This document shows, piece after piece, positions 3,961-62,749 of a stretch of 64,000 nucleotides of DNA. Position numbers and translations under genes: made by a program. Every line of letters begins with the position of its first letter. Positions within the stretch are counted from its first letter, which is position 1. Source of the DNA: Eledone cirrhosa. Taxonomy: Eukaryota. Below the pieces are notes generated by a model that saw only the letters and a program-made list of their open reading frames with translations, made no database searches and was not told where the DNA came from. The stretch spans positions 930,001-994,000 of the forward strand of contig OZ024748.1 of assembly GCA_964016885.1 (NCBI GenBank), in the 5' to 3' direction.

Positions 3961-4799
3961 GATAGCATAAATCATTTATATATATATTTATGTATATAAT
4001 ATATATGTTATAAATAACATATCCAATATATATATATATATATGTATAAAATACATACATATATAAATTGTATATGTTCTCAGATACGTTTCACATTTCT
4101 CTAATATTTCAGCTGCAATAGAGGTGTATGCTTATGATTTTACTTTCAGGAACACGTTCTGTTTGTATATAACTTTTAACAGTTCCTATATCTTCTTGTA
4201 CCTTCTAAAATAATCTCTGTATAGGCCCAAATTTTTTATAATGAACATCACTTCGACTTGATTAATATATATTAACAAATACATACATATATATATATAT
4301 ATACGCATATTATTATTGTGACTGTAAGAGCTGTTGCTGGTAAGAAATCCATTATTTGATCCATCTGCATGGCTTAACTCATTGTTGGTCTCTGTTTTAT
4401 AACTTATCTCCCTTGCCCTGCCCTCTGAATTTCTCAATATTTTTTTCTGACATGTATTTGAAGTAAAATTATTCATATAATTTTGGTGTGCATGGGACTA
4501 TATAAATGTGTGTGTGTGCGTAATTTTAACAGGTTATAACTTTAAGCACAGAATTTCTGCTTTCACCCTTTGAAGAGATCTAAAATTCCGTGGATGCAGA
4601 TATTTACATTTCAAAATATTATTGGCAAATATCATCTTCAAAATTCAGAAATACATATTGGATGAATGAGAGAACATAAAGTATAACTTAGTTGCAGTTA
4701 TGAAAATAGAGTAGATTGAATGAATTATCTTAGTTATTAGCATAGAAGTGTGAAAAATTGACCTAGGCAAATTATCTGGTATAATCCACCATATAATTA

Positions 4800-5460
4800 G
4801 ATGTGGCCACCCCAATAGCAAAACATTTCTGTTAATTGGAAAGCATTTTTTTTATGGAAGATAAATACCATATGTTTAACAGAAATACTGTTAAAATATC
4901 TTACTACACCACATCTAACCATGCTCAAAATCCAGTTAGAAGAAATATGACTTCACTTTTGGCTTACATCTGCAGCTTGAAAGCCAGGAACATTCAATAT
5001 AGGTTATATTGGGAGACCTTGGCAAAGGCTAGATCTTATAAAGGTAACAGAAAACCTTGCAATCTTTGTACTGCTGAAGCACTGGAAAGGAGTGTATACA
5101 CGAAATTTTAGTATATGTGCAATAGTTCTTTTCACCCTGTCAAATGATGTAGAATTTATTATATCTAATTTATATTTATTCCTCCAGATGAAGTTTTACT
5201 TCAAATTCTCTCATTCATCTGTTATCTTTCTGAATTTTGAATATCTTGAAATATTTATGATGCGTCCACAGTTTTTAGAATATTTTAATTTCCAAAAAAT
5301 CCCCTGGAAAGGTGAAAGAAGCAATTCTGTGTTTAAGCTTATAATTTGTTCAAATTGGAAATATTTGTACTACGGATATATATGCTAATATATATGCATA
5401 TATATATATAATATAATATATACATATAACTTTTATCGAGTCATCTCTGGATTTTGAGTG
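4800..5460 (+). mobile_element. Decayed Penelope-like (Naiad-type) 3' fragment with a degenerate pLTR
   Basis: YHMFNRNTVKISY...YRLYWETLAKARSY...CNLCTAE is homologous to the 25505-26245 ORF; 5287-5457 aligns by eye with the hammerhead-containing segment at 44506-44645. Confidence 0.75.
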
Positions 5461-5769: not shown

Positions 5770-5947
5770 AATGAAGGAATTGTGGTAAGGAACCAGATGG
5801 ACCATAATGCACCAAAGTACTCAATACTTAGGGTAGTAGAGTGGGTAATAGGAACAAGTATGTCCCCGACAGCAGAGCTCAAGCCGTTTCAACGGCTATT
5901 TCCGTCGAAACGGCTTGAGCTCTGCCGTTGGGGTCATACTTGTTCCT

Positions 5948-5949
<2 letters not shown>
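5770..5949 (-). mobile_element. Short fold-back element: 48-bp-arm hairpin (5848-5949) plus ACTCTAC..GTATTGAGTAC tail on the minus strand, inserted in (TA)n
   Basis: ataggaacaagtatg...catacttgttcctat inverted arms with a 6-nt loop; tail motif at about 5816-5843 (minus). Confidence 0.6.
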
Positions 5950-21306: not shown

Positions 21307-21430
21307 ATATATTTATATATATTTATATATATATATATATATTTATATATATTTATATATATATATATATGTATATATTTATATATATATTTATATATAT
21401 ATTTATATATATATATATTTATATTTATAT
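20590..21430. repeat. (TA)n microsatellite with TT interruptions
   Basis: Direct reading. Confidence 0.95.
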
Positions 21431-22893
21431 ATCATCATCATCATCATCATCATCATTTTACGTCCGCTTTTCCCTGCTTGCAAGGGTGGGACGGGTCTTA
21501 TTCAGCACAGCATCTCTCCACTCGTCACGGTCCCTCGTCATCTCCACCGTGAGCTTCAATGATCTGAGGTCTGTTCTCACCACCTCCGCCCATGTTTTTC
21601 GTGGTCTACCTCTACCACGTCTTCCTTCAACTGGCATTTCCTGGCACTTCTTCACCCATCGGTCATCCTCCATGCGCATCACATGTCCATACCACCTCGG
21701 TCTCCTCTCCCGTACACTACATTCTATCCCTCTCAGACACAGTTTCTCTCTCAACACATTTATGCTGGGTCGTTCACGCACATTTACACTGCACATCCAA
21801 CGGAGCATGCTTGCCTCATTTCTCTCCAGCCGTCGCATATCTTCTGCGGTAGCTGCCCATGTCTCACTACCATGCAGCATCGCGCTCCTCACACAGGCAT
21901 CATACAACCGGCCTTTCGTACGCAGGGAGAAACCCTTCTTCGTCAACAGAGGAAGCAGCTCCCTAAACTTCTTCCAACCCGTCCTTATTCTAGATACTAT
22001 GGCCTCGGAACACCCTCCTCCCATGCTAATCTGATCTCCTAGGTACTGGAAGCTATCCACCACTTCTATAGCGCCCTCTCGCATTTGAAAAATGTGTCTA
22101 TCAGTGCGACTTCTACTGTCTAATTTCCCTGTACATCTACTGCATACATATTTCTCCCTACCTGTTAGTTTGCCTGCTATCCCGCTACATCTCTTGTGTA
22201 CCCAGGACCTACATTGTGTGCATTTTATAGAATTTATGCCAGTTCCTTTTCTGCATATCGAACATGGCCATTTCCCTGACGGAATCAGGGTTTTGTCCTC
22301 TTTTCTACTCATCAACACTTTTGTCTTAGCTAGATTTACTCTCAGTCCTCTTGCTTCCAACTGCTGTTTCCATAGCCGGAATTTATTCTCTAGCTCCTCT
22401 ACTGATTCTGCCATAAGAGCCAGATCGTCAGCATAGAGAAGTTCCCATGGACAGCCAGTCTTAAACTCCTCTGTTATGGCTTGGAGGACTATAATGAACA
22501 AGAGCGGGCTGAGGACCGAATTCTGATGTACTCCTACTTGTATCTGGAATTCCTCACTAAACTCCATTCCTACCCTGACTTTACTCAGAGTACCTCTGTA
22601 CAAAGTTTGCACTGTCCTTACAAGCCATTCCTCAACACCCAGCTTCCTTAGGGACCACCAGATGACAGATCGGGGTACCCTATCAAAGGCCTTCTCTAGG
22701 TCAACAAAGGCTAAGTATAGTGGCTTATTCTTCTCTAAGAACCTCTCTTGCAATTGTCTCACCAAGAAGAGGGCATCTGTTGTACTCTTCCCAGGCACAA
22801 AACCAAACTGCATCTCATCTAGTTTGACCCTTTCTCTAATTAGTTGTGCTAAAATCCTTTCTGCCACTTTCATAACCTGATCTATCAGTTTTA
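21431..22893 (-). mobile_element. RTE-clade LINE, 5'-truncated and young; uninterrupted 471-aa C-terminal part of ORF2 (RT plus PHD-like finger)
   Basis: RT motifs QFGFVPGKST, FVDLEKAFD, LLYADD, FQYLGD; RTE-type C-terminus RWYGHVMR and GRRGRGRP; (TGA)n tail; embedded in (TA)n on both sides. Confidence 0.95.
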
Positions 22894-22913
22894 TATTTAT
22901 ATATTTATATTTT

Positions 22914-23834: not shown

Positions 23835-23862
23835 TTATATGTATATATGTATATATATACAT
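22894..23862. repeat. (TA)n microsatellite with TT/TG interruptions
   Basis: Direct reading. Confidence 0.95.
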
Positions 23863-23864
23863 GT

Positions 23865-24419
23865 AAAGTTATATTTAAAATTGTTGGGTTACAACTAGTA
23901 AATATTTATAACTGATATAAAAGCACTCGACAAATACTTGGAGTATATTTACAATATTAAATAAATGGAAAACTATATTTATAAAACCATATTTATTTCA
24001 TTATATATATTTCGGGGATATCATATTAACAATATGCTATGCCTTCATCAGACAAAATACAATATAAACAGTTTTATAGATAAATATATTCGACATACCG
24101 TAATAAACATCAACTTCATTTGAAGAGGTTCACTCTAGCAGTGAAAATACAGAGAGAAAGAAAGAGAGAGAGAAAAGAGGGAAATAAGAAAGAAAAAAAG
24201 AAAGACAAAACGAAGAAAAGGAAGAAAAAGAAGAAATGCATGGGACAAAATAGAGAGATGGAAAAATAGATAAAGCGAAGAGCTTCATGTAAAGAGACCG
24301 AAAGAGATATATATATATATAGAGAGAGAGAGGAAATAGAGATAGATACATATATAAATATAGATATAGAAAAATTAGGTAGTGGGAGGTCATTTTGAGT
24401 AAGTGTATCAATGATGCAT

Positions 24420-24454
<35 letters not shown>

Positions 24455-26245
24455 GCTCAAGTATTAATGTAAGGGAGATATATAGAGAGATATAGAGAGA
24501 GAAAAATTTAAAAATAGCCAGACATATTCGAGGCGTAGAAAACCCTATGTTTTAATGTATTAGTATTTATAAAACTTACACTATATTGTAAATATCAGTA
24601 TTCCTGAATGAAACAAGTATTCACAATGCGTGAAAATTCATTATCTTATGTTTAGTTTTTTTAAAAAAATTCATATGTCTATGTGAATCCAACTGATTCA
24701 CTCCGCAAATTCAAAGTTACCGGAAAACATTCTCAATGTGGTATAAAAATTTGAGCGTATTATTATTCTCTACAAGATTATCTATCAAGCAGAAATAGAG
24801 AGCAGATTTCAATATACTAATCGAAAATATATATTATATTATAAGCAGAGATAACAATAATAATGATAATAAGTAAAAATATATAAAAATATAAAAATAT
24901 AGAATAGAAAACTAAAAAAGAATATTACGAAAGAATATTACATAATAAAAATATTGCATATTAAAAATACTACGTATTAAAAATATTACGTATTAAAACA
25001 ATGTGGTATAAAAATATTAAAAATAAACTTACATATAAAAATATTAAAAATAAAAATAAAATAAAATAAAAAATAAAAAACAAAAATATAAAAATATTAT
25101 AGAATACTACAATACTAAAAGAATAAAAATAAAAGTAAACCACAAAGAACAACCCTTCAAGGTTAATTGACAATATATTGCCAAGTTCACTACAAGACAA
25201 AGCCAAAAATTATCTATCAAATCACATCTAGCAAGGAATATCGCAAAAAAGATTATGATGTCCAATAATGTCTACATATGTTCCTATATTTAATATATAA
25301 GTTTATCAAGTGTAAGGTTAATTCAGAAAATTTGGAGCATCGGCTTTTAGGGTAGCTTAATTTTTCATGAGGAATGTTTAGATAAAAATAAAAATAAATA
25401 AAATAAAATAAACAATAAAAAGAGTAAAAAGAGGGAATCAAAGATTTAGGAATCAAAAGATTTATCGGCTAGTTCTCATATAAATATAAATCAAACTAAA
25501 TATACTACATTTTAAATTTAAATTTATATTTAAACGTTGAGTTTAATCTATGTTTGCAACAACTGAATAAATTTGTCCGTAGGTTAAGGGAATTTTTAGA
25601 TTTTAGTATAAAGAATATCTCCTCTGCGCAGAGGTCACATGTCTCAGAGGATGAATTAAAAGGAATCCCTCTTGAGACTATATTCCAAGCCGTCGAATAT
25701 CTAACGTTATCTAGCTTAAGTTGCCAGAGTACACCTGATAGTGCCGTTGAAGATTTTTTATTTGGATCTGTGAAAGAATTCTTGTGGTTATTATAGCGAA
25801 GTTTAAATTCCGTCGATGTGGAACCGATGTAGTTAAAAGAATTAGAGTCAGTATTAACATTACAATTGTATACTATATTTTTAACTAAGCAGTTGTTATT
25901 TAACGGACATTTAGATCTATCTCTACAGTTACATTTGTTAACTTGTATATTATTTATGCTATTATCAGTAGGTTTTAAGTTCCTATTATTTATTCTATTA
26001 ATATTTTGTGCTAAATTTTTGGTGGATGAGTAGGTTAATTTAATTGTATGCCTATTGAAGATTGAGTGGTACCTATGTGTTCTAGGGAAGCGATTATCAA
26101 GAGCTTTGAAAAATAATTTAGCGATGTGCGTTTTAATGTTTAGTGAGAAAGGGGGGGCAAACCAAATTATGTTCCTAGTTCTATTTCTTTTTTGTCCTTT
26201 GGAATTATTGTAATGCTTTCTATTATAGTTGTTAATGTTGTTGCC
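23865..26245 (-). mobile_element. Penelope-like element (probably Naiad clade), 5'-truncated: thumb/linker plus GIY-YIG endonuclease (25505-26245), long AT-rich 3' region and hammerhead-bearing pLTR
   Basis: RNIIWFAPPFS...SIFNRHTIKLTYS, CNCRDRSKC (CxCx5C) linker, NIVY...YIGST...RYNNH, CDLC...E and terminal CCKH; hammerhead motif at 23994-24059 on the same strand; ends in (TA)n. Confidence 0.85.
23994..24059 (-). ncRNA. Minimal type I hammerhead ribozyme in the Penelope/Naiad pLTR
   Basis: UAUUUUGU-CUGAUGA-stem II (14 bp, 3 mismatches)-GAAA-UAUAUA-UA-AUGAAAUA; stem I is 8 bp with two G-U pairs. Confidence 0.75.
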
Positions 26246-26334
26246 ATAATTAAAAAAGTTGTTACTTTGTTTAGTTTGTTTATCATTATCTATGTATATA
26301 TATATATATTTATATGTATATATATATATATTAT

Positions 26335-26673
26335 GGAGGCACATGGCTTAGTGGTTAGAGCATTGGCCTTACAATCGAAAGGTTGTGAGTTCAATTCTCG
26401 GACCGAGTGATGTGTTGTTTCCTTGAGCAAGACACTTTATTTCACATTGCTCCAGTTTACTCAGCTGTAGAAATGAGATGATAGGGACTGGGGTCCATAT
26501 CATACCACTGCCAAGTGGTCGTGGAGGTGCCACGGTAAAAAAGCACCCAGCACCCACTGTAAATGAGGTTGGTGTTAGGAAGGGCATCCAGCTGTAGAAA
26601 TCAAGCCAGCATCAGTTCCCGTCCCACCCTTGCAAGCAGGGAAAAAGTGGACGTAAAATGAAATGATGATGAT
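26335..26673 (+). mobile_element. tRNA-derived CORE-type SINE with an RTE-derived 3' tail
   Basis: Box A tggcttagtgg, box B gagttcaattc, CORE-like ccttgagcaagacacttt; 26618-26673 matches the 3' end of the RTE LINE including (TGA)n. Confidence 0.85.
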
Positions 26674-27838
<1,165 letters not shown>

Positions 27839-30565: not shown

Positions 30566-30679
30566 TTATATATATATTTATATATATATATATATTTATA
30601 TATATTTATATATATATATATTTATATATATATATTTATATATATTTATATATATATATATTTATATATATATATTTAT
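29561..30679. repeat. (TA)n microsatellite of pure A/T
   Basis: Direct reading. Confidence 0.95.
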
Positions 30680-32325
30680 ATCATCATCATCATCATCATC
30701 ATTTTACGTCCGCTTTTCCCTGCTTGCAAGGGTGGGACGGGTCTTATTCAGCACAGCATCTCTCCACTTGTCACGGTCCTTCGTCATCTCCACCGTGAGC
30801 TTCAATGATCTGAGGTCTGTTCTCACCACCTCCGCCCATGTATTTCGTGGTCTACCTCTACCACGTCTTCCTTCAACTGGCATTTCCTGGCACTTCTTCA
30901 CCCATCGGTCATCCTCCATGCGCATCACATGTCCATACCACCTCAGTCTCCTCTCCCATACACTACATTCTATCCCTCTCAGACACAGTTTCTCTCTCAA
31001 CACATTTATGCTGGGTCGTTCACACACATTTACACTGCACATCCAACGGAGCATGCTTGCCTCATTTCTTTCCAGCCGTCGCATATCCTCTGCAGTTGCT
31101 GCCCATGTCTCACCACCATGCATCATCGCACTCATCACACAGGCATCATACAACCGGCCTTTCGTACGCAGGGAGAAACCTTTCTTCGTCAACAGAGGAG
31201 CAGCACCCTAAACTTCTTCCAACCCGTCCTTATTCTAGATACTATGGCCTCGGAACATCCTCCTCCCATGCTAATCTGATCTCCTAGGTACCGGAAGCTA
31301 TCCACCACTTCTATAGCGCCCTCCTGCATTTGAAAAATGTGTCTATCAATGCGACTTCTACTGTCTAATTTCCCTGTACATCTACTGCATACATATTTCT
31401 CCCTACCTGTTAGTTTGCCTGTACCCAGGATCTGCATTGTGTGCATTTTATAGAATTTATGCCAGATCCTTTTCTGCATATCGAACATGGCCATTTCCCT
31501 GACGGAATCAGGGTTTTGTACTCTTTTCTACTCATCAACACTTTTGTCTTAGCTAGGTTCACTCTCAGTCCTCTTGCTTCCAACTGCTGTTTCCATAGCC
31601 AGAACTTATTCTCTAGCTCCTCTACTAATTCTGTCTGCTATAAGAACCAGATCGTCAGCATAGAGAAGTTCCCATGGACAGCCAGTCTTAAACTCCTCTG
31701 TTATGGCTTGGAGGACTATAATGAACAAGAGCGAGCTGAGGACCGAACCCTGATGTACTCCTACTTGTATCTGGAATTCCTCAGTAAACTCCATTCCTAC
31801 CCTGACTTTACTGAGAGTACCTCTGTACAAAGTTTGCTCTGTTCTCACAAGCCATTCCTCAACACCTAGCTTCCTTAGGGACCACCAGATGACAGATCGG
31901 GGTACCGTATCAAAGGCCTTCTCTAGGTCAACAAAGGCTAAGTATAGGGGCTTATTCTTCTCTAAGAACCTCTCTTGCAATTGTCTCACCAAGAAGAGGG
32001 CATCTGTTATACTCTTCCCAGGCACAAAACCAAACTGCATCTCATCTAGTTTGACCCTTTCTCTAATTAGTTGTGCTAATATCCTTTCTGCCACTTTCAT
32101 AACCTGATCTATCAGTTTTATACCCCTATAATTGCTCCTCTCCAGACCATCCCCTTTACCTTTGTAGCAATTTATGAGAATACTGCTGCACCAGTCTTTG
32201 GGTATGACACCACCATATATAGCCTGATTGATGATGCGTGCAACCAGTTTAGCATCTCAGCAACTATTCCCGATGGTCCGGCAGCCTTACCATTTTTCAT
32301 TTCCCTAATTGCCTCTTGGACCCTA
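30680..32325 (-). mobile_element. Second copy of the same RTE LINE family, 5'-truncated and frameshifted
   Basis: Nearly identical to 21431-22893. Split into ORFs 31606-32100, 31189-31494 and 30704-31192, with a 22-nt deletion in the zinc finger and a (TGA)n tail. Confidence 0.95.
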
Positions 32326-37321: not shown

Positions 37322-40278
<2,957 letters not shown>

Positions 40279-40714
40279 AGAGATTACAGTGATCAAAGTT
40301 CAGTTTAAGTCATTTATTTGCTTACAATTGTTTCCTCCAAACCGAGGTTTGGATTCTTCGGAGCAGTTATTTATAACATACTTGACCTCCTTTTCAACCC
40401 AAGAGACACATAAAACATATGCGCATATTGATCAACAGTGGGGTGACATTCATCAAATGAAATAGCATGGCAATTTTCATATAAAGTGTTACATGATAAA
40501 AATAAAGTGTTACATGATAAAAATAAAATAAAATAAAAGCAAGAGTGAAAATAAAGATAAACATGAAGCGTTGGCAGTCTATGAAGATAAAGCAAGAGGA
40601 AAGCTTAGAGTAGTCAGTGCATGAAGCAATCTCCCGTGTAGCATGCACGCTTGTCTTATCTATACATGATTAGAGTGCGTCAGAATGATATATGCAGGGT
40701 CAGGCAGTTGAAAT

Positions 40715-43070
<2,356 letters not shown>

Positions 43071-43268
43071 TTATCTTCATAGACTGCCAACGCTTCATGT
43101 TTATCTTTATTTTCACTCTTGTTTTTATTTTATTTTTATCCTGTAACCTTTATATGTAAATTGCCATGCTATATCATTTGATGAATGTCACCCCACTGTT
43201 GATCAATATGCGCATATGTTTTATGTGTCTCTTGGGTTGAAAAGGAGGTCAAGTATGTTATAAATAAC

Positions 43269-43315
43269 TGCTCCGAAGAATCCAAACCTCGGTTTGGAGG
43301 AAACAATTGTAAGCA
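43269..43315 (+). ncRNA. Hammerhead-like motif with variant core (CCGAAGA); mirror copy on the minus strand at 40319-40365
   Basis: UGCU/AGCA stem I, UCCAAAC/GUUUGGA stem II, GAAA, palindromic ACAAUUGU stem III, GUA triplet. Confidence 0.6.
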
Positions 43316-43360
43316 AATAAATGACTTAAACTGAACTTTGATTACTGTAATCTCTCTCTC

Positions 43361-43409
<49 letters not shown>

Positions 43410-43464
43410 GTAATATAATTCTGGCAATATTACGCAAATATGACCCTCCCCAAATATAACGATA

Positions 43465-44505
<1,041 letters not shown>

Positions 44506-44509
<4 letters not shown>

Positions 44510-45770: not shown

Positions 45771-46330
45771 CAACATTTGTACTACATCTGTGGGAGGACT
45801 ATATCCGAAACTATATTATATACAGTATGTAATGATTTTTTCTCCTGTAGTTGTGCTACATCTAAAGCTATATTCTACAATATATAAGATCTCTCTTCTG
45901 TACTTGTTCTGCATCCAAAGCTGTATTCTGCAATATATATATATATAACAATTTGCTGCTATACATGTGCTGTTACATCTAAAACCATATTACATTCAAT
46001 ATATAACATTTCTCTGCTGTACATCCACTACATCTAAAGGTATATTATGTAATATACACACACACACACACATACGCATACATATATATATAGGGAAAAG
46101 CAGACGTAAAATGATGATGATATATATATATATATATATATACATACACACACACATATATACATACATGCCCGTCTAACCCATGCTAGCATGGAAGAAC
46201 GGACGTAAAACGGTGATGATGATGATATATATATATATATACACACACATATATAAACACTTCTCTGATATATATATATATACATACATATATATATATA
46301 GGGAAAAGCGGACGTAAAATGATGATGATG

Positions 46331-46361
<31 letters not shown>

Positions 46362-46509
46362 TTTTGAGTATATGTTGGTTGTATACCAACACCTCAGTAT
46401 GCAGATTGGAGCACGCGACGAAGTGCGCAGGTTGGTTTGGTTACTCTGGAGTAATGTAAAATAAAATAAAATAAATAAGTCAAATGTTTAAAATTTAGCT
46501 TCGTTTATT

Positions 46510-46564
46510 ACTGCTATATATATTTCGGTGACAGCCATCTTTGGCTGTGACCTCTTCAGGCAGT
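46510..46564 (-). ncRNA. Mirror copy of the same hammerhead ribozyme on the minus strand
   Basis: Exact reverse complement of 46797-46851 within the 448-bp palindrome. Confidence 0.8.
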
Positions 46565-46796
46565 CCGAATTAGTGTGGTATAGACAAGTACATATGTTGT
46601 TGAGGTGTATAACTTTGTCAATACTCTGATATGCCCAGTTCCTGGTTGGGTTGTTATTTCACAGAGGAACTGGAATCGTATATGATTGCAGTTCCTCAGT
46701 GAAATAACAACCCAACCAGGAACTGGGCATATCAGAGTATTGACAAAGTTATACACCTCAACAACATATGTACTTGTCTATACCACACTAATTCGG

Positions 46797-46851
46797 ACTG
46801 CCTGAAGAGGTCACAGCCAAAGATGGCTGTCACCGAAATATATATAGCAGT
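46797..46851 (+). ncRNA. Minimal type I hammerhead ribozyme with intact core
   Basis: Stem I ACUGC/GCAGU, core CUGAAGA, stem II GGUCACAGCCA-AAGA-UGGCUGUCACC, GAAA, palindromic stem III UAUAUA, cleavage triplet AUA (after 46846). Confidence 0.8.
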
Positions 46852-46902
46852 AATAAACGAAGCTAAATTTTAAACATTTGACTTATTTATTTTATTTTAT
46901 TT

Positions 46903-46933
<31 letters not shown>

Positions 46934-49800: not shown

Positions 49801-50084
49801 TGTATATATATATAAATGAAACATGCTAATTTCTGAAAGAGAAAATAAAATATAAGTGAAGGTTCATCATTTCTTGTCATTTTAAGTTGAGACTTTTTCT
49901 GCTCAATAATTTTTTTTGTGGTTGATTAGAGATGATTTGTCATAAAATATTACACACATACACACCTTCTCTTTCTCTGTCTCTGTCAATATACATACTG
50001 ACTCCCTCTTTCTCTCTGTCTCTGTCAATATACATACTGACTCCCTCTCTCTATATATATGTATGTATATTCATATATTTATTT

Positions 50085-50290
50085 TATTATAGAAATGACT
50101 TCTACAGGACTAGATCTGTTTCATTCATTAAAAATTATCAGGAAAGTTAGGACTTTCCTGATAATTTTTAATGAATGAAACAGTTCTAGTCCTGTAGAAG
50201 TCATTTCTATAATAGAATCAATATGCCTATACTCTACTAACGTATTGAGTACCTTTTTCTAACTGTGGTCATCTAATATACATTGGAAAG
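50085..50290 (+). mobile_element. Short fold-back element: 63-bp-arm hairpin (50085-50214) followed by an ACTCTAC..GTATTGAGTACC tail; probable pLTR relic
   Basis: One mismatch between arms, 4-nt loop; decayed core CTGATAA...GAATGAAAC; same family as 59707-59860. Confidence 0.6.
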
Positions 50291-50301
50291 CCATCCATTC
50301 A

Positions 50302-52474: not shown

Positions 52475-54015
52475 AAAATTGTTGGTAGCCAAGGATCTAT
52501 CCTGCAGTGCACCACTGTGAATGTTAGCAGCAACAGTAGCAAAGGTGATGGCAAATTCAACGCCGTTGCCCAAAAGACTCCAGTGGTTCCGGCTGTTGAA
52601 ACTGCAGCAAAGAAAAACGATGGGCCTTGCCGAACAAGTGACTTAGAAGGAAGTGCAGTTAGCAGCTGTTCTGCTGTCAAGACAAACTGCAAAAAAGCTG
52701 GAAGTTCTGTCGGGTCAGTCAATGCTAGCTGTACTTTAACAACAGCTGGCTCAGTACGAAAGGACGGAGGTTTTGCTGGGAGAGGAAATAACGCTCCGCA
52801 GATTATTAACACTGGTTGTATTAACAAAGGGAAGATTCTCACAAGATCAACTGCGATTGTTCCCCCTCCTTTGAGACCTAACGATAATTCCAAGACTATG
52901 AGACGTAATTCAGGTTTCTCAAACATGAGACCAGTAGTTCCGACTCCCGGCAATATATTCCCTGGTTCTAATCCACCGAGGGTTCGAAATCCTGGAGCAA
53001 ACTTCAACAACCCTCGACCAGGCGTTTGTGTCCAAGGAAGCTTATATGGCAGACCAAATGTTCCAATGGGCAATGTGAGGAATGCAAGGCAGATGGGTAT
53101 GGTGAATCGTTTCAGTGCTCCACCGCCTCGAGCCAGTGGTGGGATCCTTGGGAGGCCAACAGGCTCTCAGATGATGAGACCCACATGTCCTGGAACTGGA
53201 AATAAGGCCAATCAGATGGTCATCACAAACGTCCCCACGAATATTGTGAATCAAAAAGTTCCTGGTTGTAACAAACAGAACATGAAACCAAATTCTAATA
53301 CCACTACCACAACTGCCGCTGTCACCACTACTACCACTACTTCAACTACTATCTCTACTACTTCTACTAGTACTACTACTATTAATAATGTTAATATTAA
53401 AAGCAATGTGACTTTTACCAACTCTCGAAACAAGACTTTGGTATTGTCAGAAGGGAATAGTAGCAAGGCCATCAACAGTGGTAAGAATTTGGTGAAAGCA
53501 AAAGGTGAAACAGGTAAAATGGTTAGTAAAATGAAAGGCCAGGTGAACGCAGCTAATAACTCTTCTACTGTTGATTTAGATGTCACTAAAAAGATGAGTA
53601 ATAATAATAAAAGTGGCAATGTTGGTGGTGGCAGTAGCAGTAGTGGTGCCACTGTAACAAGGTCTTCTAACAGCAGTCAAGTGAGTGTGACTAGTACTAG
53701 CAACAACAACACTAATAACAAATCAACAAACATTGTCAAAATAGATAGTAGTGGTCCAGCAATACAGCATGTAGCACCACCTACCAGCAGCTCGTCCATT
53801 ACCAATGTCAAGTTAATGCCCACTACTGCCACTACAACTACCATTTGCACCACTTCTGGCAGCATCCCTACCGCTACTACTACCACCAATAATACTACTG
53901 CTACTGCTATAAAACCAAGTCCCAAACCAAGTGGAACTCTTTCTACAAGTGTTGGCCCTATTGTAGCGTCAATTAGTGGAGAAACACAAACTTCAACGAC
54001 CGAATCTAAAGAAAA
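52475..54015 (+). CDS. GPATCH8: Penultimate coding exon (1541 nt; Asn/Thr/Ser/Gly-rich low complexity) of a GPATCH8/ZNF804-family gene
   Basis: Polypyrimidine tract and CAG acceptor ending at 52474 (tcttttctcttcag|AAAATT). Frame is open throughout (ORF 52517-54019). Donor AA|gtaagt at 54015/54016 is phase 2 and matches the next exon. Confidence 0.75.
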
Positions 54016-54798
54016 GTAAGTTGTAGTGTATTATATATATTTATTTGTTGGCTTTACTTGTTGCAATCATCCTGGGGCTCTACCTTAAAGTATATAGATA
54101 AATAGTAGATTTGTTGTACTGGGGCTCTCTACCTTAAAGTATATAGATAAATAGTAGATTTGTTGTACTGGGGCTCTCTACCTTAAAGTATATAGATAAA
54201 TAGTAGATTTGTTGTACTGGGGCTCTACCTTAAATATGTAGATAAATAGTAGATTTGTTGTACTGGGGCTCTACGTTGATGTGGGTAAATGGTTGAGTTT
54301 TTTTACTGGTTGTGGTGATACTGAGGCGTTACCTTAAAGTTTGTAGGTAAATAGTAGTAGTTTTACTGGTTGTAGTCATCCTGGGGCTCTATCTTGATGT
54401 AAGTAAATGGCAGAGCTGTTTAAGCATTAAATTTAATATTACGTCTTACAGTATTTGGTCAGGCTGATTGTGCTCTAAGTTTAAATTCCGTTGGAGTCAC
54501 ACTCTGCCTTTAATGTAGGATTATATATACACATAACAAACATTTGGTATATGTTATACCAAATGTCTGTTATGTGTATATAAAGTATTTAAAGTGTGTA
54601 TATTCATATATAAAGAACAGTGTGCTCATGCGTGGAGATGCTATAAAATAGAGTGAAGACCCTTAATGACAGGAAAAGAAGTTATATATTATTCCCCAGA
54701 AAACACACCTTTACTCCATGTTTGTAATATTCCTTAATTGTTTGTATTTCCTGTCTGTCTGGGATTGTAATTATCTCGTTTGTTTTTATTTAATTTAG
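54016..54798 (+). other. GT-AG intron (783 nt) between the two coding exons
   Basis: gtaagt ... tttaatttag boundaries; phase-compatible; contains a minisatellite and a short hairpin. Confidence 0.75.
54071..54400. repeat. Minisatellite, unit about 48-50 bp (ctggggctctaccttaaagtatatagataaatagtagatttgttgta), 4 good copies plus decayed ones
   Basis: Direct reading in the last intron. Confidence 0.9.
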
Positions 54799-57700
54799 GG
54801 AGCAACATCCATTAGAATCTACTGGTGCAGAAGAGGGCTGTGATGCATTGGATGACTGTGAAGGATCTAAAAGTGGGATTTCATTCTCCTTTCGGCGAAA
54901 AAGGGGACAAAAATTACCATCTTCAGTTCCGTTTGGTAAGGAAAGAGATGAGAAACTCTTACATTCTGGTGAGATGGAGCGAGAAGCTAAAGACAGTAAA
55001 ATGTTGGAAGAAACCAACAGCGTTGGGAAAGGTGATGTCGAGAAGTGTGAGAAGTCAACTGAAGACAAGCCAGCTACTAAAGACATGCCTCCTGCAGGAA
55101 TGCCATTCTTGAAGGTCCTCAACAAAGAACAAACACTGGAGCTAGATTGGCCAGTGGAGATGATTCAATATACAAAGACTTTGCCATCCATAACTTACAG
55201 CTGTAATCCTCTCTTCTTTGACTTCAGTGAATTACTGCCAAAGAATAAGTCACAGAAGAGTGGCGACGACGCTTCTAAGAATAAAGCCAAAAGTAATAAA
55301 ATGGAGGAGGTGTCAACTAGTGCAAAGGTGACGGAGTTAAACAGCTTGACAGCTGCTGCTAGTATGAAGGATAGTAAAGAGGAAAGTAAGTCTTCACTGA
55401 CAAGAAAGTCTAAGAAGAAGAAACGGAAATTGTCAGTCCAACGTCACTCTGATGATGATGAACCGAAGACGAAAAAGAAGAAGAAGAAAAAGCATAAGAA
55501 GAAGGAACATAAGGGTGAGGAAGGAGTTTCTGGTAAAGATGAAGGTAAGAATGTCTCTGTTGAAAGTGGAAAGAATAAAAGACATAAGAAGAAGAAGAAG
55601 AGATCTCAACAATGCAGCACCAAGTCTGACGTCGAGTTAGGAGATGGTGGAGAAATTGTTCGGAGTAAAAGTTCTCACAAAAGCAAACACAAAAAACACA
55701 AATCAAGAAAATCTAAGAAGAAGAGGCACAAAAGTGATGACTTTGAGAAGCATTCTCAAAGTGGTGGGGGCCATGAGACTGAAGAGGAAGGTACAGGTTC
55801 GTACGGTGGTCTGAAAAATAAACAGTTGAAAAGGAGAAAATCTCAATTAAAAAATGAATCTGGTAATATTACTTCGGAAGATGAGTCTACAGTGGTGCCC
55901 TCTGATAGCAAGGTTTTCAAAATACACAAAACTAAAGGGAAAATGATTGGTGTTGATCGAAGTGAGTTAACTGAGCCTGACTCTAAGCAGTCAGCTACTG
56001 TTGCTGCCATTTCAATGTGTGAAGATGAAAAACCTGAGTTCAGTAAGAAAAGACCCGGGAGCATTGGTAATAGTAATAATAATAATAATGCCGGTTCTTT
56101 ATTTGAATCTATGGACGATTGTAAGAAGAGTATCAAAGAAGAAGGTGTTTGTGTGAAGGCTGGTTCTAGCAGCGAATGGAAACGCAATTCAGGAGACACT
56201 GAGTCTCCTGTAAATAGCAAGAAGAAATTACCTAGAACCACCACAACTACTGCAACTACTAATACTACTGCTACTACTACAACTACTACTACTACTACAA
56301 CTACTACTGCCTGTATAAAGAGTGAGGACACGTGGAGTAAAATGGAAAATCTATTTGAAGCTCGCTTCGACCCACAAGGAAACAAAGCATCATGGGACAC
56401 AAGCAGTGACAGTGATGTTGAATCCCCTGTTAATGCATGTTTAAAGTCTAAAACCAACAACGATGGTTTTAAGAGGAAGAAGAGTGGTGATGGTTCCGTA
56501 CAGACTGATAAAAAGGACACTACTAAAAATAACAGTAACAATACTAATAATAGCAACAACAACAACAATAGTAATACTAATAGTAATAATACTAACAAAA
56601 GTGCTTTTTCAACGTCAAAAGTTGATGCCCGTATTGAAAACTATCATCAAAGCTCTGGAAGTGATACGGATCAGCCATCTTCCTCTGTACAGAAGAGTTA
56701 CAAGAGAAAGAAATGTTACTCTGGTGAGAGTCAGCACAGTGCAAGTCAGTGTCGGAGCAGAGAACATTCTTACAGCTCATCCTACAGCGACAGGGACTCC
56801 CATTATTCAGATAAATCGAAACACAGGCACTCTAGGTCACACTCATCCAGCAACTCTCGGTCGAGGTCACGGTCAAGGTCAGTGTCCTACGAAAGACATG
56901 GTTCTCACAGAGGTCGGCGATACTCCTACAGTAGTTACTCGGAGGATGACTATCGCTACCGGCGCAGACGCACGGCCTCGCGGTCTTGCAGCCGGCATCG
57001 GTCGCGAAGTCGCTCCAGCTCGTATAGTCGTTCTAGAAGATACCGATCCTATTCCAGTGAACACCGGTCATACACTAGCAGCAGTAGCCGATCGAGAAGT
57101 CGATCGGAGTCGCGGGGTCGTTCCCGCTCGTATTCCTACTCTCGATCACACTCCAAATCTTCCTCGTACTCGAGGTCCCGGTCGAGGTCACGATCATACC
57201 ACAAGTCTCACTCCAAGTCGCGGTCGCCTCACAAATCTAAGTCGGACTACCGACACAAAAGCAGTCCAGAACCCCGATACAGTTCTTCTTACTCGACCAA
57301 GAAATATTCTAGAAGTCTCCAGAGTAAAAAGAGCGAAAGTGATAAAAGCGGGAAACTCGACCCTGCCAAGATTCCTATGCCTGGTGATATCAAGGAAGGA
57401 GGGGGTGACCAAGGGGACAAAAATAAAGGGAAAAGTTCTGCAGGAGGAGGAGGAGAAAGTTTGACAAAATCTTCCACGTCTCAGAGTGAGGTGAGCACTG
57501 TGTCAAACAGTGCCACTGGTAAGGCTGACCCAGCTGGGCAGGGTAATGCCACTGAAGCGAAACCAAGCAGCAGTGGCTTGAAAAACATCCCATTGCCTCC
57601 TTTCCAGGTGGCAGAAGCTGCACAGGTAGCTCAGGTAGCCCACCTGGCGGTGCCTGATAATCAAACTCGTCCTCCACCACCCCCTCCGCAGATCATACCT

Positions 57701-58906
57701 CCGCCCCACTTTCCGGCGCCTGCCAGCGAGGCCCTCTTGCACCCGCTTCCCGACCTTTCACAGCCACCACCCTCTGCGGCCATCATCCCCAACTGCCCCC
57801 CTCCTCCTCCTCCTCCACCGCCACCACTCAACATGACCATGCCCACGCTGCCCCCCACGAGGATGGGGGGTCCTTCTTTGTATGGCCACCTTGGCCTTCC
57901 TCCCCGGGAGGCGACGCCAATGAATGTGCCACCCCCGCCACCTCCTCCCAGAACTCTGCCATTCACGCCCCGGTCAGTGACACGTCTGGAGCAGACCAAG
58001 GATGGCACCATCATAAAACCCTCAATAGAACCAAATATGCAAAGCCTGCCGATGCAACCCAGTTTACTGCCTTTAGTTGTAGAGGCTGTGGAAAAAGAGA
58101 TGACTCCGCCTCTTCCACCCCCCAAGTCCCCACCCCCCCAGCCACCGCCTCCACCCAAGAAAGAGGATGAGAAGAAGAGCTGTGAGGAGATCTCTCCCAT
58201 GCCTCTTCCTATCATCCCTCCAGAGCAGGCGGAGCAATACAAACACTTGCAGGAGATGGCCCAGAAGCATGCTCTGAAACAACAGAGACGTCAGCAGCAG
58301 AAGGAAACAGGCCAAGTTGAAGAGAGTGATGACGATGAGTCAATGGAAATGGAAGGGCAGGTTTCGGCAGTAGTGTCTGATGAAGAGATTGACGAGCAGC
58401 CAGGAATCCTGGCTTTGCCGGAGCCTGAACCTCAGCACTTACAGCAGCAGATCCTCTTACCTCAGGCGCAACACGCGGGTAGCCCGGTGATTGCTCACCA
58501 CCCCATGGTGCCGTTCAGCCAGCAGCAGCAAATTATGATCCCTCCAAGCGCGTTGCTCCAGTCGCAGGGCACGTTTCCGATCCAGGCCGGAGGTCCCGTC
58601 ATCGCCATTCCACAGATGTCGCACGGAGCTGCCCATCACCACCACCACCACCATCCACACCCGGCGTTGGCGGCGGCTGGTCACCACCACCACCACCACG
58701 CCCTCCACCATCACCTCCACGCCACTGCTGCCGGGCTACCAATAGCTGCTGCAACCCATCCATTTCATCATCAACTCATCGCGGCTCCCAGTCAACTGAT
58801 GCCCCTGGCTTCACCACAGCCAGTCCTCACTCAGATACATCACCCAGGCTCAATAATTATAGGTCATCAGGTATACATCCCAAGATTCCCCAGAGCTCCT
58901 ATTTAA
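54799..58906 (+). CDS. GPATCH8: Terminal coding exon (about 4.1 kb) of a GPATCH8/ZNF804-family protein with Lys-rich NLS-like tracts, RS domain, poly-Pro and His-rich C-terminus
   Basis: Acceptor tttaatttag|G at 54798/54799 gives AA+G=Lys in frame with the 1352-aa ORF. The motif PFLKVLNKEQTLELDWPVEMIQYTKTLPSITYSCNPLFFDF matches the conserved WPxE...YSCNPLxFDF block of GPATCH8/ZNF804A, and SGISFSF precedes it. The order Lys tracts, RS repeats, His/Ala-rich tail follows vertebrate GPATCH8. Stop TAA at 58904-58906. Confidence 0.85.
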
Positions 58907-59706: not shown

Positions 59707-59860
59707 AATATTTGATATAGAAATGGCTTCTACAGGACTAGAACTGTTTCATTCAAAGGAAATCAGTAGTCATGTAGAAGCCATTTCTATATTAAATATT
59801 GTATATACTCTACTATGTATTGAGTACCTTACTGTGGTTACCCCCGATTGAACCCGGGAT
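59707..59860 (+). mobile_element. Second member of the 50085 fold-back family (arms 59707-59734 and 59773-59800)
   Basis: Shares atagaaatg(g/a)cttctacaggactaga(a/t)ctgtttcattc and tactctacta..gtattgagtacc..ctgtggt with 50085-50290. Confidence 0.6.
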
Positions 59861-60239
59861 ACAAACATATATATATATACTGAAAAAATTAGCATGGTCT
59901 CTATATGAATATGACATGCACATTTATGAAGCGTTCCATATTTTTTCAACCAGTAATACACACAAACGCATATTCACACATACATATATATCTGTCTGTG
60001 TAAGAGATGATTTATCACTGAATTTTGATAATTATAAACAGAATATGCAGTTTATTAAAATTGACAATTCACATAAGTGACAAAGACAGAGACCAATTCT
60101 GGCCAGACTTGTCTCTCGGTGTGAATGACCCATCTAACCCTTGAAAGCATGGAAAATGGTGATGATATATATATATATAATGTGTGTGTATTCATTTTAT
60201 TAAGACTAATAGTGAGTCTTGTTACTCAGGAGTAACTCT

Positions 60240-60280
60240 CTGATGACCCTGTGATAGGTGAAACTCCAAAGTAACTATTT
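60240..60280 (+). ncRNA. Hammerhead core in a pLTR-like fold-back relic (60193-60330)
   Basis: CUGAUGA-CCCU-GUGAU-AGGU-GAAA-CU-CCAA-AG-UA; flanked by inverted arms 60193-60213 and 60274-60296, then AATAAA and TCTAC..GTATTGAGT. Confidence 0.5.
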
Positions 60281-60619
60281 AGCCTTAATAAAATGTATAT
60301 TATTAAAATTCTACGTCGGTATTGAGTCCTCTTTTCTCTCAGCCATCAACCACATACAGATATATATATATACACACATATATATATAACACAGATTCTT
60401 ATCATTATTTTGTACTTGTTGGATTATAGTTTGTATTTAATGTCATAATAATGTGAGGAATGTGATAGCTAGAGACACAGATGAGTGTCATAGCTGGAGT
60501 TACATCTGATGTGACTGTCATCCATTGTGACTAGTTACATGTAATGTGACATCCAGTCACTTCTCATGTGACATCTAAGGTCAAATCCAATGCTTTAACA
60601 GGGAAACTGGTATTTCTTT

Positions 60620-62194: not shown

Positions 62195-62749
62195 ATATAT
62201 ATATAGTTAAGGTCATGTCAGTGGCTAGCATGTTTCAACTCTGGGTTACAGGGTCTTCTAACAGTACTATGGTCTGAAGACCGTGTAAATGTGTGAAGAA
62301 ATTCTAAAGGAAAAAGCCCCCTGACTCAACCTTGATAAAATATAAATCTCCTCTACTATGGTATTGAGTACTCATGTTCATCAATACCAATTGGATATAT
62401 ACATACATACACACACGTATATTATATATATATATAATGTGTAATCTTGAGTGGGTGGGCTGTATTGTCAATATTTCACAATAGTCTTTCATCTTCAATC
62501 TCATCATTTTAGCAACTGACTAGTATTGCAGATCATTTTTGGGTTATTTTATTTTATTTTATTTTTTTGTGCGTTTTTATTTGGCATATTGCCATTCACC
62601 CATGTGAAAATGAACTTTTTCCTGTCAAATAAAAACATTTGATTAGATGTTGGCTTGTTTTTCTTTTGTTATTGTTTTGTTAATTATTACTACTGCTTAA
62701 CCCTTTTTAACCCTTTAACATTTATATTACTATATATATATATATATCG

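Follow-up and report, generated by a model that had tools for sequence, protein, structure and literature searches.

The 64,000-nucleotide stretch of Eledone cirrhosa DNA analysed here (contig OZ024748.1, positions 930,001 to 994,000; hereafter the window) is AT-rich animal DNA crowded with (TA)n, and at 46457-46904 it contains a 448-bp palindrome. The two arms, 46457-46680 and 46681-46904, are 224 nt each, abut with zero spacer and differ at three pairs (46678/46683, 46673/46688 and 46663/46698), in agreement with a sequence-only reading that had described 224-bp arms with about three mismatches. The outer 206 pairs are perfect and all three mismatches lie no more than 18 nt from the centre, a clustering with a chance of about 0.0005 (0.006 without the central one). 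The term 'loop-less' in that reading holds for the DNA, whereas folding of the palindrome transcript predicts that the RNA apex opens into a 6-nt loop. The inserted unit is bigger than 448 bp and covers approximately 46353-46909: the minus-strand arm runs on for 104 nt (46456 to 46353) up to (TA)n, while the plus-strand arm reaches (TA)n within a few bases. (TA)n abuts both ends of the unit and the head-to-head joint of an inverted copy is confirmed; no target-site duplication is readable within these flanks, and self-comparison of the window found no tandem unit at the palindrome. The features used below are as follows.

46329-46352, unstranded: (TA)n target on the left side, after a LINE 3'-end remnant (sequence).
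46353-46456, minus: one-sided tail of 104 nt, the inferred 3' end of the element, prolonging the minus-strand arm and ending in (TA)n.
46365-46396, minus: predicted AC-rich stem-loop near the tail end, a candidate RT start region (folding; analogy to the PAc element, PMC11167929).
46390-46412, minus: tail stretch in which 19 of 23 nt agree with the published consensus of Hydra-1_Crog at its 3' end (sequence comparison).
46443-46453, minus: ACTC..GAGT hairpin at the tail start, 4 nt past the end point of the short arm (motif common to three other palindromes, where it lies 5-6 nt past the arm end).
46457-46680, minus: long arm, a pLTR-like 3' segment with its sense on the minus strand (self-alignment and read families).
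46510-46564, minus: type I minimal hammerhead, predicted cut between 46515 and 46514 (mirror copy, descriptor scan).
46663-46698, unstranded: apex with all three arm mismatches, each private relative to the family (arm comparison, run X1).
46681-46904, plus: short arm, a tailless inverted copy whose sense strand is the plus strand (self-alignment).
46797-46851, plus: type I minimal hammerhead, predicted cut after 46846 (folding, descriptor scan).
46852-46857, plus: AATAAA directly after stem I, with its mirror at 46504-46509 on the minus strand.
46905-46932, unstranded: T-run and (TA)n target on the right side, no duplication readable (sequence).
~5848-5949, ~50075-50224 and 46457-46904, unstranded: long palindromes in the window (palindrome scan).
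52475-58903, plus: host context, two large exons at ~52475-54016 and 54794-58903 (protein homology).

Each arm carries a hammerhead motif, the two lying on opposite strands with 233 nt between them. On the plus strand, a 5-bp stem I (ACUGC/GCAGU, 46797-46801 and 46847-46851) encloses the core segments CUGAAGA (46802-46808) and GAAA (46835-46838), the latter followed by UAUAUA and then U16.1-A17, and stem II, capped by an AAGA loop, is paired at all of its 11 positions but one, a C-C mismatch; every element named in the earlier description (core nucleotides, 11-bp stem II with one mismatch, UAUAUA stem III, AATAAA) is present. The motif is not a product of chance, because the 59-nt fold reaches z=-3.9 with 0 of 200 shuffles equally good, and because a relaxed descriptor matches three times in the window (the two palindrome copies and one site at 24051) as against 0.05 matches per shuffled window; over 100 shuffles no match had a stem III that was palindromic. 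One intact hammerhead per strand, as had been proposed, is what the letters spell, yet the Rfam hammerhead covariance models give no match at the gathering score, nor at E up to 10, and below the gathering score only miRNA-hairpin look-alikes appear at the palindrome. Stem III is predicted to form in the monomer with P=0.006, and a trans dimer to gain 7.2 kcal/mol; together with published work (PMC4209133, PMC6765202), this bears out the suggestion that the ribozyme belongs to the dimer-dependent minimal class. Minimal hammerheads of metazoan Penelope-like elements (PLEs), in which stem II is long and stem I short, gave no cleavage as monomers and low cleavage as dimers (PMC4209133; dimer cleavage is reviewed in PMC6765202), and the hammerhead of PAc, also a PLE, cleaves only together with the PLE protein (PMC11167929). 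On the folding model, a lone ribozyme at this locus is probably near-inactive. Since the two motifs occupy opposite strands, no dimer would arise within one RNA, leaving pairing in trans only.

We assign the unit with high confidence to a PLE insertion, an origin that the sequence-only reading overlooked along with the 104-nt tail. As published, PLE insertions form partial tandems, include a 5'-truncated copy in inverted orientation, bear a tail of 30-40 nt on one end and target microsatellites (PMC8557442), and palindromes at their head-to-head junctions have been read as self-priming (PMC3846280). Like the units described in these sources, the one found here has a head-to-head inverted copy, a junction palindrome, a tail at one end only, an arm of pLTR size (~200 nt) and a microsatellite target, (TA)n, without readable duplication, and it contains a type I hammerhead whose stem III is short and palindromic. 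Unlike them, it has no ORF body between the repeats, only two 3' segments, and its tail measures 104 nt (67-77 nt in three other palindromes of the window) rather than the 30-40 nt published for Penelope, Poseidon and Naiad; tail length is an optional trait that lowers the fit to those three clades and not to PLEs as a class. Dual minimal hammerheads on opposite strands, 100-700 bp apart, have been described (PMC4209133), a range that includes the spacing found here, and Penelope-13_HM combines an inverted copy with a hammerhead on both strands (PMC8557442). With the minimal type I motifs of PLEs (PMC4209133; PAc, PMC11167929) our copies share the 5-bp stem I, the long stem II, G10.1-C11.1 and the palindromic stem III, and they differ in that stem II lacks an unpaired base at its 5' end and that, in about half of the family, a G-U replaces G10.1-C11.1. 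Against the PLE reading stands the fact that the family is known here from the repeat alone, with no RT-endonuclease ORF linked to it. The structure is most likely one already known in kind, the palindrome being the ordinary head-to-head scar of a PLE insertion into a TA repeat.

The clade is probably Hydra, whose members target (TA)n and include one in Octopus bimaculoides (PMC8557442); in another cephalopod, the giant squid, 235 hammerhead loci have been counted (PMC6962438). Likenesses to this clade are the (TA)n target, a hammerhead 100-200 nt from the 3' end (162 nt from cut site to tail end in our unit) with a short palindromic stem III, the occurrence in cephalopods, as for Hydra-1_Obim, and the tail match to Hydra-1_Crog, for which a rough estimate of chance is 0.002-0.013. 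The differences lie in stem II (11 positions versus 3-7) and in the stem III region, an 8-nt AU palindrome here versus 9-11 nt with 3-4 pairs in the motifs listed in PMC8557442; published Hydra hammerheads have a stem III of 3-4 bp and a loop of 1-3 nt, and ours can be drawn as three A-U pairs with a 2-nt loop, yet it remains at least 1 nt shorter than all the listed ones. The ribozyme sequence of the palindrome is not present in the PMC8557442 supplement. A further likeness to the clade is a Hydra-type ORF end elsewhere in the window, separate from the palindrome family. This 5'-truncated GIY-YIG ORF end (25508-26347, minus strand) starts at a (TA)n tract, is 43% identical to protein P0005 and has no Pfam match. 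Hydra-clade proteins have a CxCX5C linker and CxxC and CxH around the E and N residues, and lack CCHH (PMC8557442); the ORF has the linker and the CxxC and CxH pair. An older, frameshifted fragment of a Hydra-type endonuclease ORF lies at 4797-5108 (plus strand). P0005 itself has no match to the arms or the tail.

The 104-nt tail is very likely part of the element, judging from its sequence, because its hairpin motif recurs and because it shares matches with the 3' ends of Hydra-2_Amil and Hydra-1_Crog. The ACTC..GAGT motif, defined post hoc after the data had been seen, has 14 matches at 10 places in the window versus 3.2 expected, and 0 of 100 shuffles reach 14; the four palindromes considered below account for four of the 10 places and a solo hammerhead copy (24051) for a fifth, and the remaining five are unexplained. 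A stricter form gives four matches (three palindromes and a solo copy), none in 100 shuffles, and is also found 3' of the hammerhead in the 3' end of the published Hydra-2_Amil consensus. The predicted tail fold has z=-2.55. The tail has no second copy within the window, and our comparison with sequencing runs masked 46340-46485, so that its membership of the arm family is not directly seen there. A 66-nt GT..AG intron on the minus strand (46511-46446), linking an ATG in stem II to the sole open frame of the tail, was considered and set aside as unsupported, the donor being weak and a subfamily carrying ~8 extra nt at that site; the 32-aa tail peptide, compared with 1.84 billion proteins, had only two matches, both false hits to repeat proteins.

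Scanning for long palindromes other than microsatellites yielded three in the window, and BLAST added a fourth (~59709-59800). Each of the four has a tail at one end only: a microsatellite lies at or close to the end of one arm, and the other arm is prolonged by 67-104 nt. In all four, which represent three families, the short arm stops 4-6 nt before the ACTC..GAGT hairpin. The palindrome at 5771-5949 has 48-nt arms head to head, a 6-nt loop, a 77-nt left tail and (TA)n on both sides, and its apex, which directly precedes a GAAAC word, may fall within a truncated ribozyme. Those at 50075-50300 and 59709-59867 belong to one further family, with head-to-head arms of 73 and 43 nt, respectively, and right-side tails; the former retains a decayed Hydra-like hammerhead core and the latter shows an 8-nt offset at 59709-59800. 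The tail and (TA)n of the latter are followed by the 3' half of a U6 snRNA match (59842-59945, plus strand, 47.7 bits), the convincing part of that match and probably a truncated retro-pseudogene beside or fused to the PLE insertion. Solo copies also occur. One, of another family (23860-24063, minus strand), lies 1.45 kb downstream of the 25508-26347 ORF on the same strand. Its decayed type I hammerhead shares the UAUAUA stem III, and the ACTC..GAGT hairpin and (TA)n follow the cut site at 56 and 142 nt, respectively. A second, short one (62208-62396, plus strand), bounded by a (TA)n tract on either side, has its tail hairpin at 62351 and a CUGAAGA core, now decayed, at 62274, and a hammerhead-like core, CUGAUGA ... 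GAAAC (60223-60290, plus strand), fails the descriptor and is probably a decayed copy.

From this boundary rule we tentatively propose that Hydra-type PLEs of cephalopods have tails of ~70-105 nt with a conserved ACTC..GAGT hairpin at their start, and that this hairpin may fix the end of the inverted arm and signal either a second RT start or endonuclease resolution, although the odds are against the proposal as a whole. A hairpin with this role was not found in print in title-level literature searches or in parts of the PMC8557442 supplement. If the idea is right, the family, which is young and probably numbers thousands of copies, would allow genome sequence alone to separate copy-back from a two-cDNA route. 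The origin of the inverted arm and one-sided tail of PLEs is stated to be open in PMC8557442 and PMC11167929, and a fixed short-arm end offers a concrete test; as a locus the palindrome matters little, while a usable mechanistic lead comes from the length of the tails together with the fixed boundary of the short arm.

Sequencing runs place the arm in a large family. Among 22 listed runs, 19 contain part of the palindrome stretch and three contain at least half of the sampled words; none of those containing it is an RNA run, and the run with the largest share may derive from the very source of the window. Four of the 22 were compared in detail over 46340-46720, and 14 of the 19, with shares below 0.2, were left out. 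Matches to the arm number 1,735 of 16.5 million contigs in X1, 182 of 0.76 million contigs in X5, 26 of 8.3 million contigs in X4 (which carries another organism label) and 5,738 of 12.5 million reads in X20, so the arm is a member of an abundant repeat family; exact-pattern scans found it in 0 viral and 0 metagenome contigs. Summed depth in X1 peaks at ~8.9e5 over the ribozyme and drops several-fold toward the apex, which would translate into ~9,000-87,000 copies if one copy had a depth of 100-10, summed depth not being the same as copy number. A subfamily with ~8 extra nt at the AATAAA site is indicated by loose ends at 46509. Pile-ups of molecule or loose ends in X20 at 46492 and 46568-46572 were rejected as element ends and regarded as restriction-library artefacts, since they fall on the only two AATT sites of the compared stretch, and X20 loose ends at 46681 were discounted on the same ground.

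The ribozyme is under constraint in this family, as the variant pattern suggests: sites variable at ≥5% make up 3 of 55 positions in the ribozyme versus 23 of 98 upstream (Fisher p=0.0036, an optimistic value given that the count pools related subfamilies), and none lies in the catalytic core. The count omits one row downstream of the ribozyme and rows 46663-46712, and takes two-allele positions once. Two of the three ribozyme variants are in loop II, and the third, present in about half of the depth, replaces G10.1-C11.1 by G-U. At 46663, 46678 and 46688 the other allele makes up >99% of X1 depth, and all three apex mismatches are private to the palindrome locus. Across 46485-46662 no change is both private to the locus and common to both arms; the insertion therefore looks young rather than homogenised later, and an old insertion evened out by gene conversion was rejected on this ground. 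It is very likely both young and dead.

Contigs of X1 and X5 that pass 46681 continue with GAAT and then diverge, which indicates that the native sequence is a short imperfect palindrome around CATATG. One X4 contig follows the mirror sequence for 16 letters beyond 46677 and then ends, one X1 contig crosses a similar apex with different central letters, and seven X20 reads join the opposite strand to 46681 from 46533 and 46544 (three and four reads). These turn-rounds with differing letters show that head-to-head joints at the apex boundary recur and were formed more than once.

Our preferred account, to which we give a probability of roughly 0.55, is that the palindrome is a dead PLE insertion, probably of the Hydra clade, formed by copy-back of its own cDNA strand. 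From the observed anatomy, (TA)n flanks, abundant family, conserved ribozyme and recurrent apex we infer the enzymatic steps throughout. A GIY-YIG endonuclease would nick (TA)n, and RT would start inside the RNA at the tail end (~46353) and copy tail, ribozyme and upstream segment, ~330 nt in all. The new strand may then turn back at the nearly self-complementary stretch around CATATG and be copied into an identical second arm; this copy-back would stop, or be cut, 4 nt before the tail hairpin and be joined to the other (TA)n end. Host repair would render the product double-stranded, with later apex repair leaving the three mismatches. The two ribozymes would be passengers, their conservation reflecting selection in the RNA of the parent element and not at the palindrome locus. 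Copy-back is favoured because the arms are identical and because the tail is on exactly one end in four of four palindromes; it also predicts what is seen in the outer 206 pairs, which match throughout in a region where the family itself varies. It leaves unexplained the difference private to the long arm (46663), for which a later event is needed, and it does not say why all three private changes lie so near the apex, where hairpin-tip repair and sequencing error are both possible.

The asymmetric joints (46533 and 46544 to 46681) and the 8-nt offset of the 59709-59800 palindrome count against copy-back, since they fit an insertion through two cDNAs at least as well. By this route, the chief rival of copy-back and less probable than it, both nicked target strands would prime RT on identical RNAs, one at the tail end and the other at the tail start, and both cDNAs would run to the same 5' boundary and be end-joined head to head at the self-complementary apex. 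The protein of PAc, which cuts and extends both strands, is predicted to dimerize and starts inside the RNA at two sites bracketing the tail (PMC11167929), would suit such a route, as would the apex letters that differ among three events and the arm-private differences on both arms; the asymmetric joints and the private change of the long arm are better explained by it than by copy-back. The PAc start site shows no strand difference, however (PMC11167929), so that tails on both ends or on neither would be expected where four of four palindromes have one, and identity of the arms over 206 pairs also counts against two cDNAs. Literature searches on PLE twin priming or inversion, at the level of titles, found none on this route.

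It is improbable that the palindrome moves whole, as a non-autonomous unit (retrozyme-like, or fold-back or MITE-like) using both ribozymes. The recurrence of the apex in other runs and the abundance of the family would suit such a unit, but depth falls several-fold from ribozyme to apex, contigs pass 46680/46681 into unrelated sequence, the apex letters vary between events, and the run data suggest single arms of variable length for most copies; the locus moreover has asymmetric ends with neither tandem array nor target-site duplication. Non-LTR retrozymes, which are defined as tandems (10.64898/2026.07.22.740005), resemble our unit in being short, non-coding, PLE-related and equipped with a type I hammerhead, and differ in being head-to-tail tandems with both ribozymes on one RNA, where ours is head to head with one ribozyme per strand; as the palindrome lacks the two or more head-to-tail hammerhead units, this identity was rejected. 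In MITEs and fold-back DNA transposons the terminal inverted repeats are symmetric and immediately abut a target-site duplication. That identity was likewise rejected, the ends being asymmetric by 104 nt with no duplication readable in (TA)n.

The sequence-only reading had proposed that the fold-back masks self-cleavage and so allows the insertion to be tolerated in an intron. The first half has a basis in prediction: in a read-through transcript of the whole palindrome, from either strand, the ribozyme fold (stem I) is abolished (P ~1e-55), the masking being thermodynamically complete at -389 kcal/mol; the insertion plausibly lies in an intron. The idea that masking explains why the structure exists or is tolerated found no support, the masking being symmetric on either strand, a consequence of the insertion geometry, and accompanied elsewhere in the window by palindromes of the same layout with decayed, truncated or cut-through ribozymes. 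The monomer is predicted to be without stem III and the minimal hammerheads of PLEs do not cleave alone, which may leave hardly any activity to be masked. The insertion itself appears recent, and there is no indication of selection on the palindrome locus. We therefore regard a fold-back kept for silencing a self-cleaving ribozyme in a host intron and for supplying functional dsRNA as quite improbable, a shade more so than a mobile palindrome. Least probable of all is an assembly or library artefact (a fold-back chimera), for which speak the three mismatches at the apex, where hairpins sequence poorly, and the fact that among the reads and contigs compared over 46340-46720 no listed piece spans the locus, and against which stand a mirror that stops at 224 nt, flanks that differ inside one continuous degenerate host repeat, similar turn-rounds in contigs of two other runs, and three more palindromes common to one non-random boundary rule.

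The host ORF at 54794-58903 has a cuttlefish protein as its best named homologue, which also matches an exon beginning at ~52475 with an acceptor; the upstream exon, corresponding to homologue residues 1-75, was not found within the window. Because the exon starts at that acceptor and the first 75 residues are absent from the window, the palindrome probably lies upstream in a plus-strand host intron of >52 kb, and the intronic part of the earlier claim is thus plausible, separate from tolerance through masking. The product encoded at 52475-58903 (plus strand) is of low complexity, rich in Ser, Arg, Lys, Pro and His, with no match in the Pfam copy searched, and contains a conserved WPVE..SYSCNPLFFDF motif that we take to be the one of GPATCH8/ZNF804 proteins. 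If the position is intronic, the two arms would pair in the pre-mRNA over 224 bp almost without mismatch, and such a duplex would be a likely target of A-to-I editing or source of small RNAs in cephalopods, a group with heavy RNA editing; it is plausibly a side effect.

The window also holds other repeats. The LINE 3'-end remnant to the left of the palindrome matches repeats at 21314-21495, 26618-26809 and 30567-30741. One LINE, with matches to RT and PHD-finger domains, is present in two truncated copies (21461-22912 and 30707-32256, both on the minus strand), each of which ends near a (CAT/GAT)n-(TA)n tail; three remnants of such tails are present at 46094-46330. A 7.2-kb (TA)-rich satellite occupies 37323-44506, and over part of it G is confined to the plus strand.
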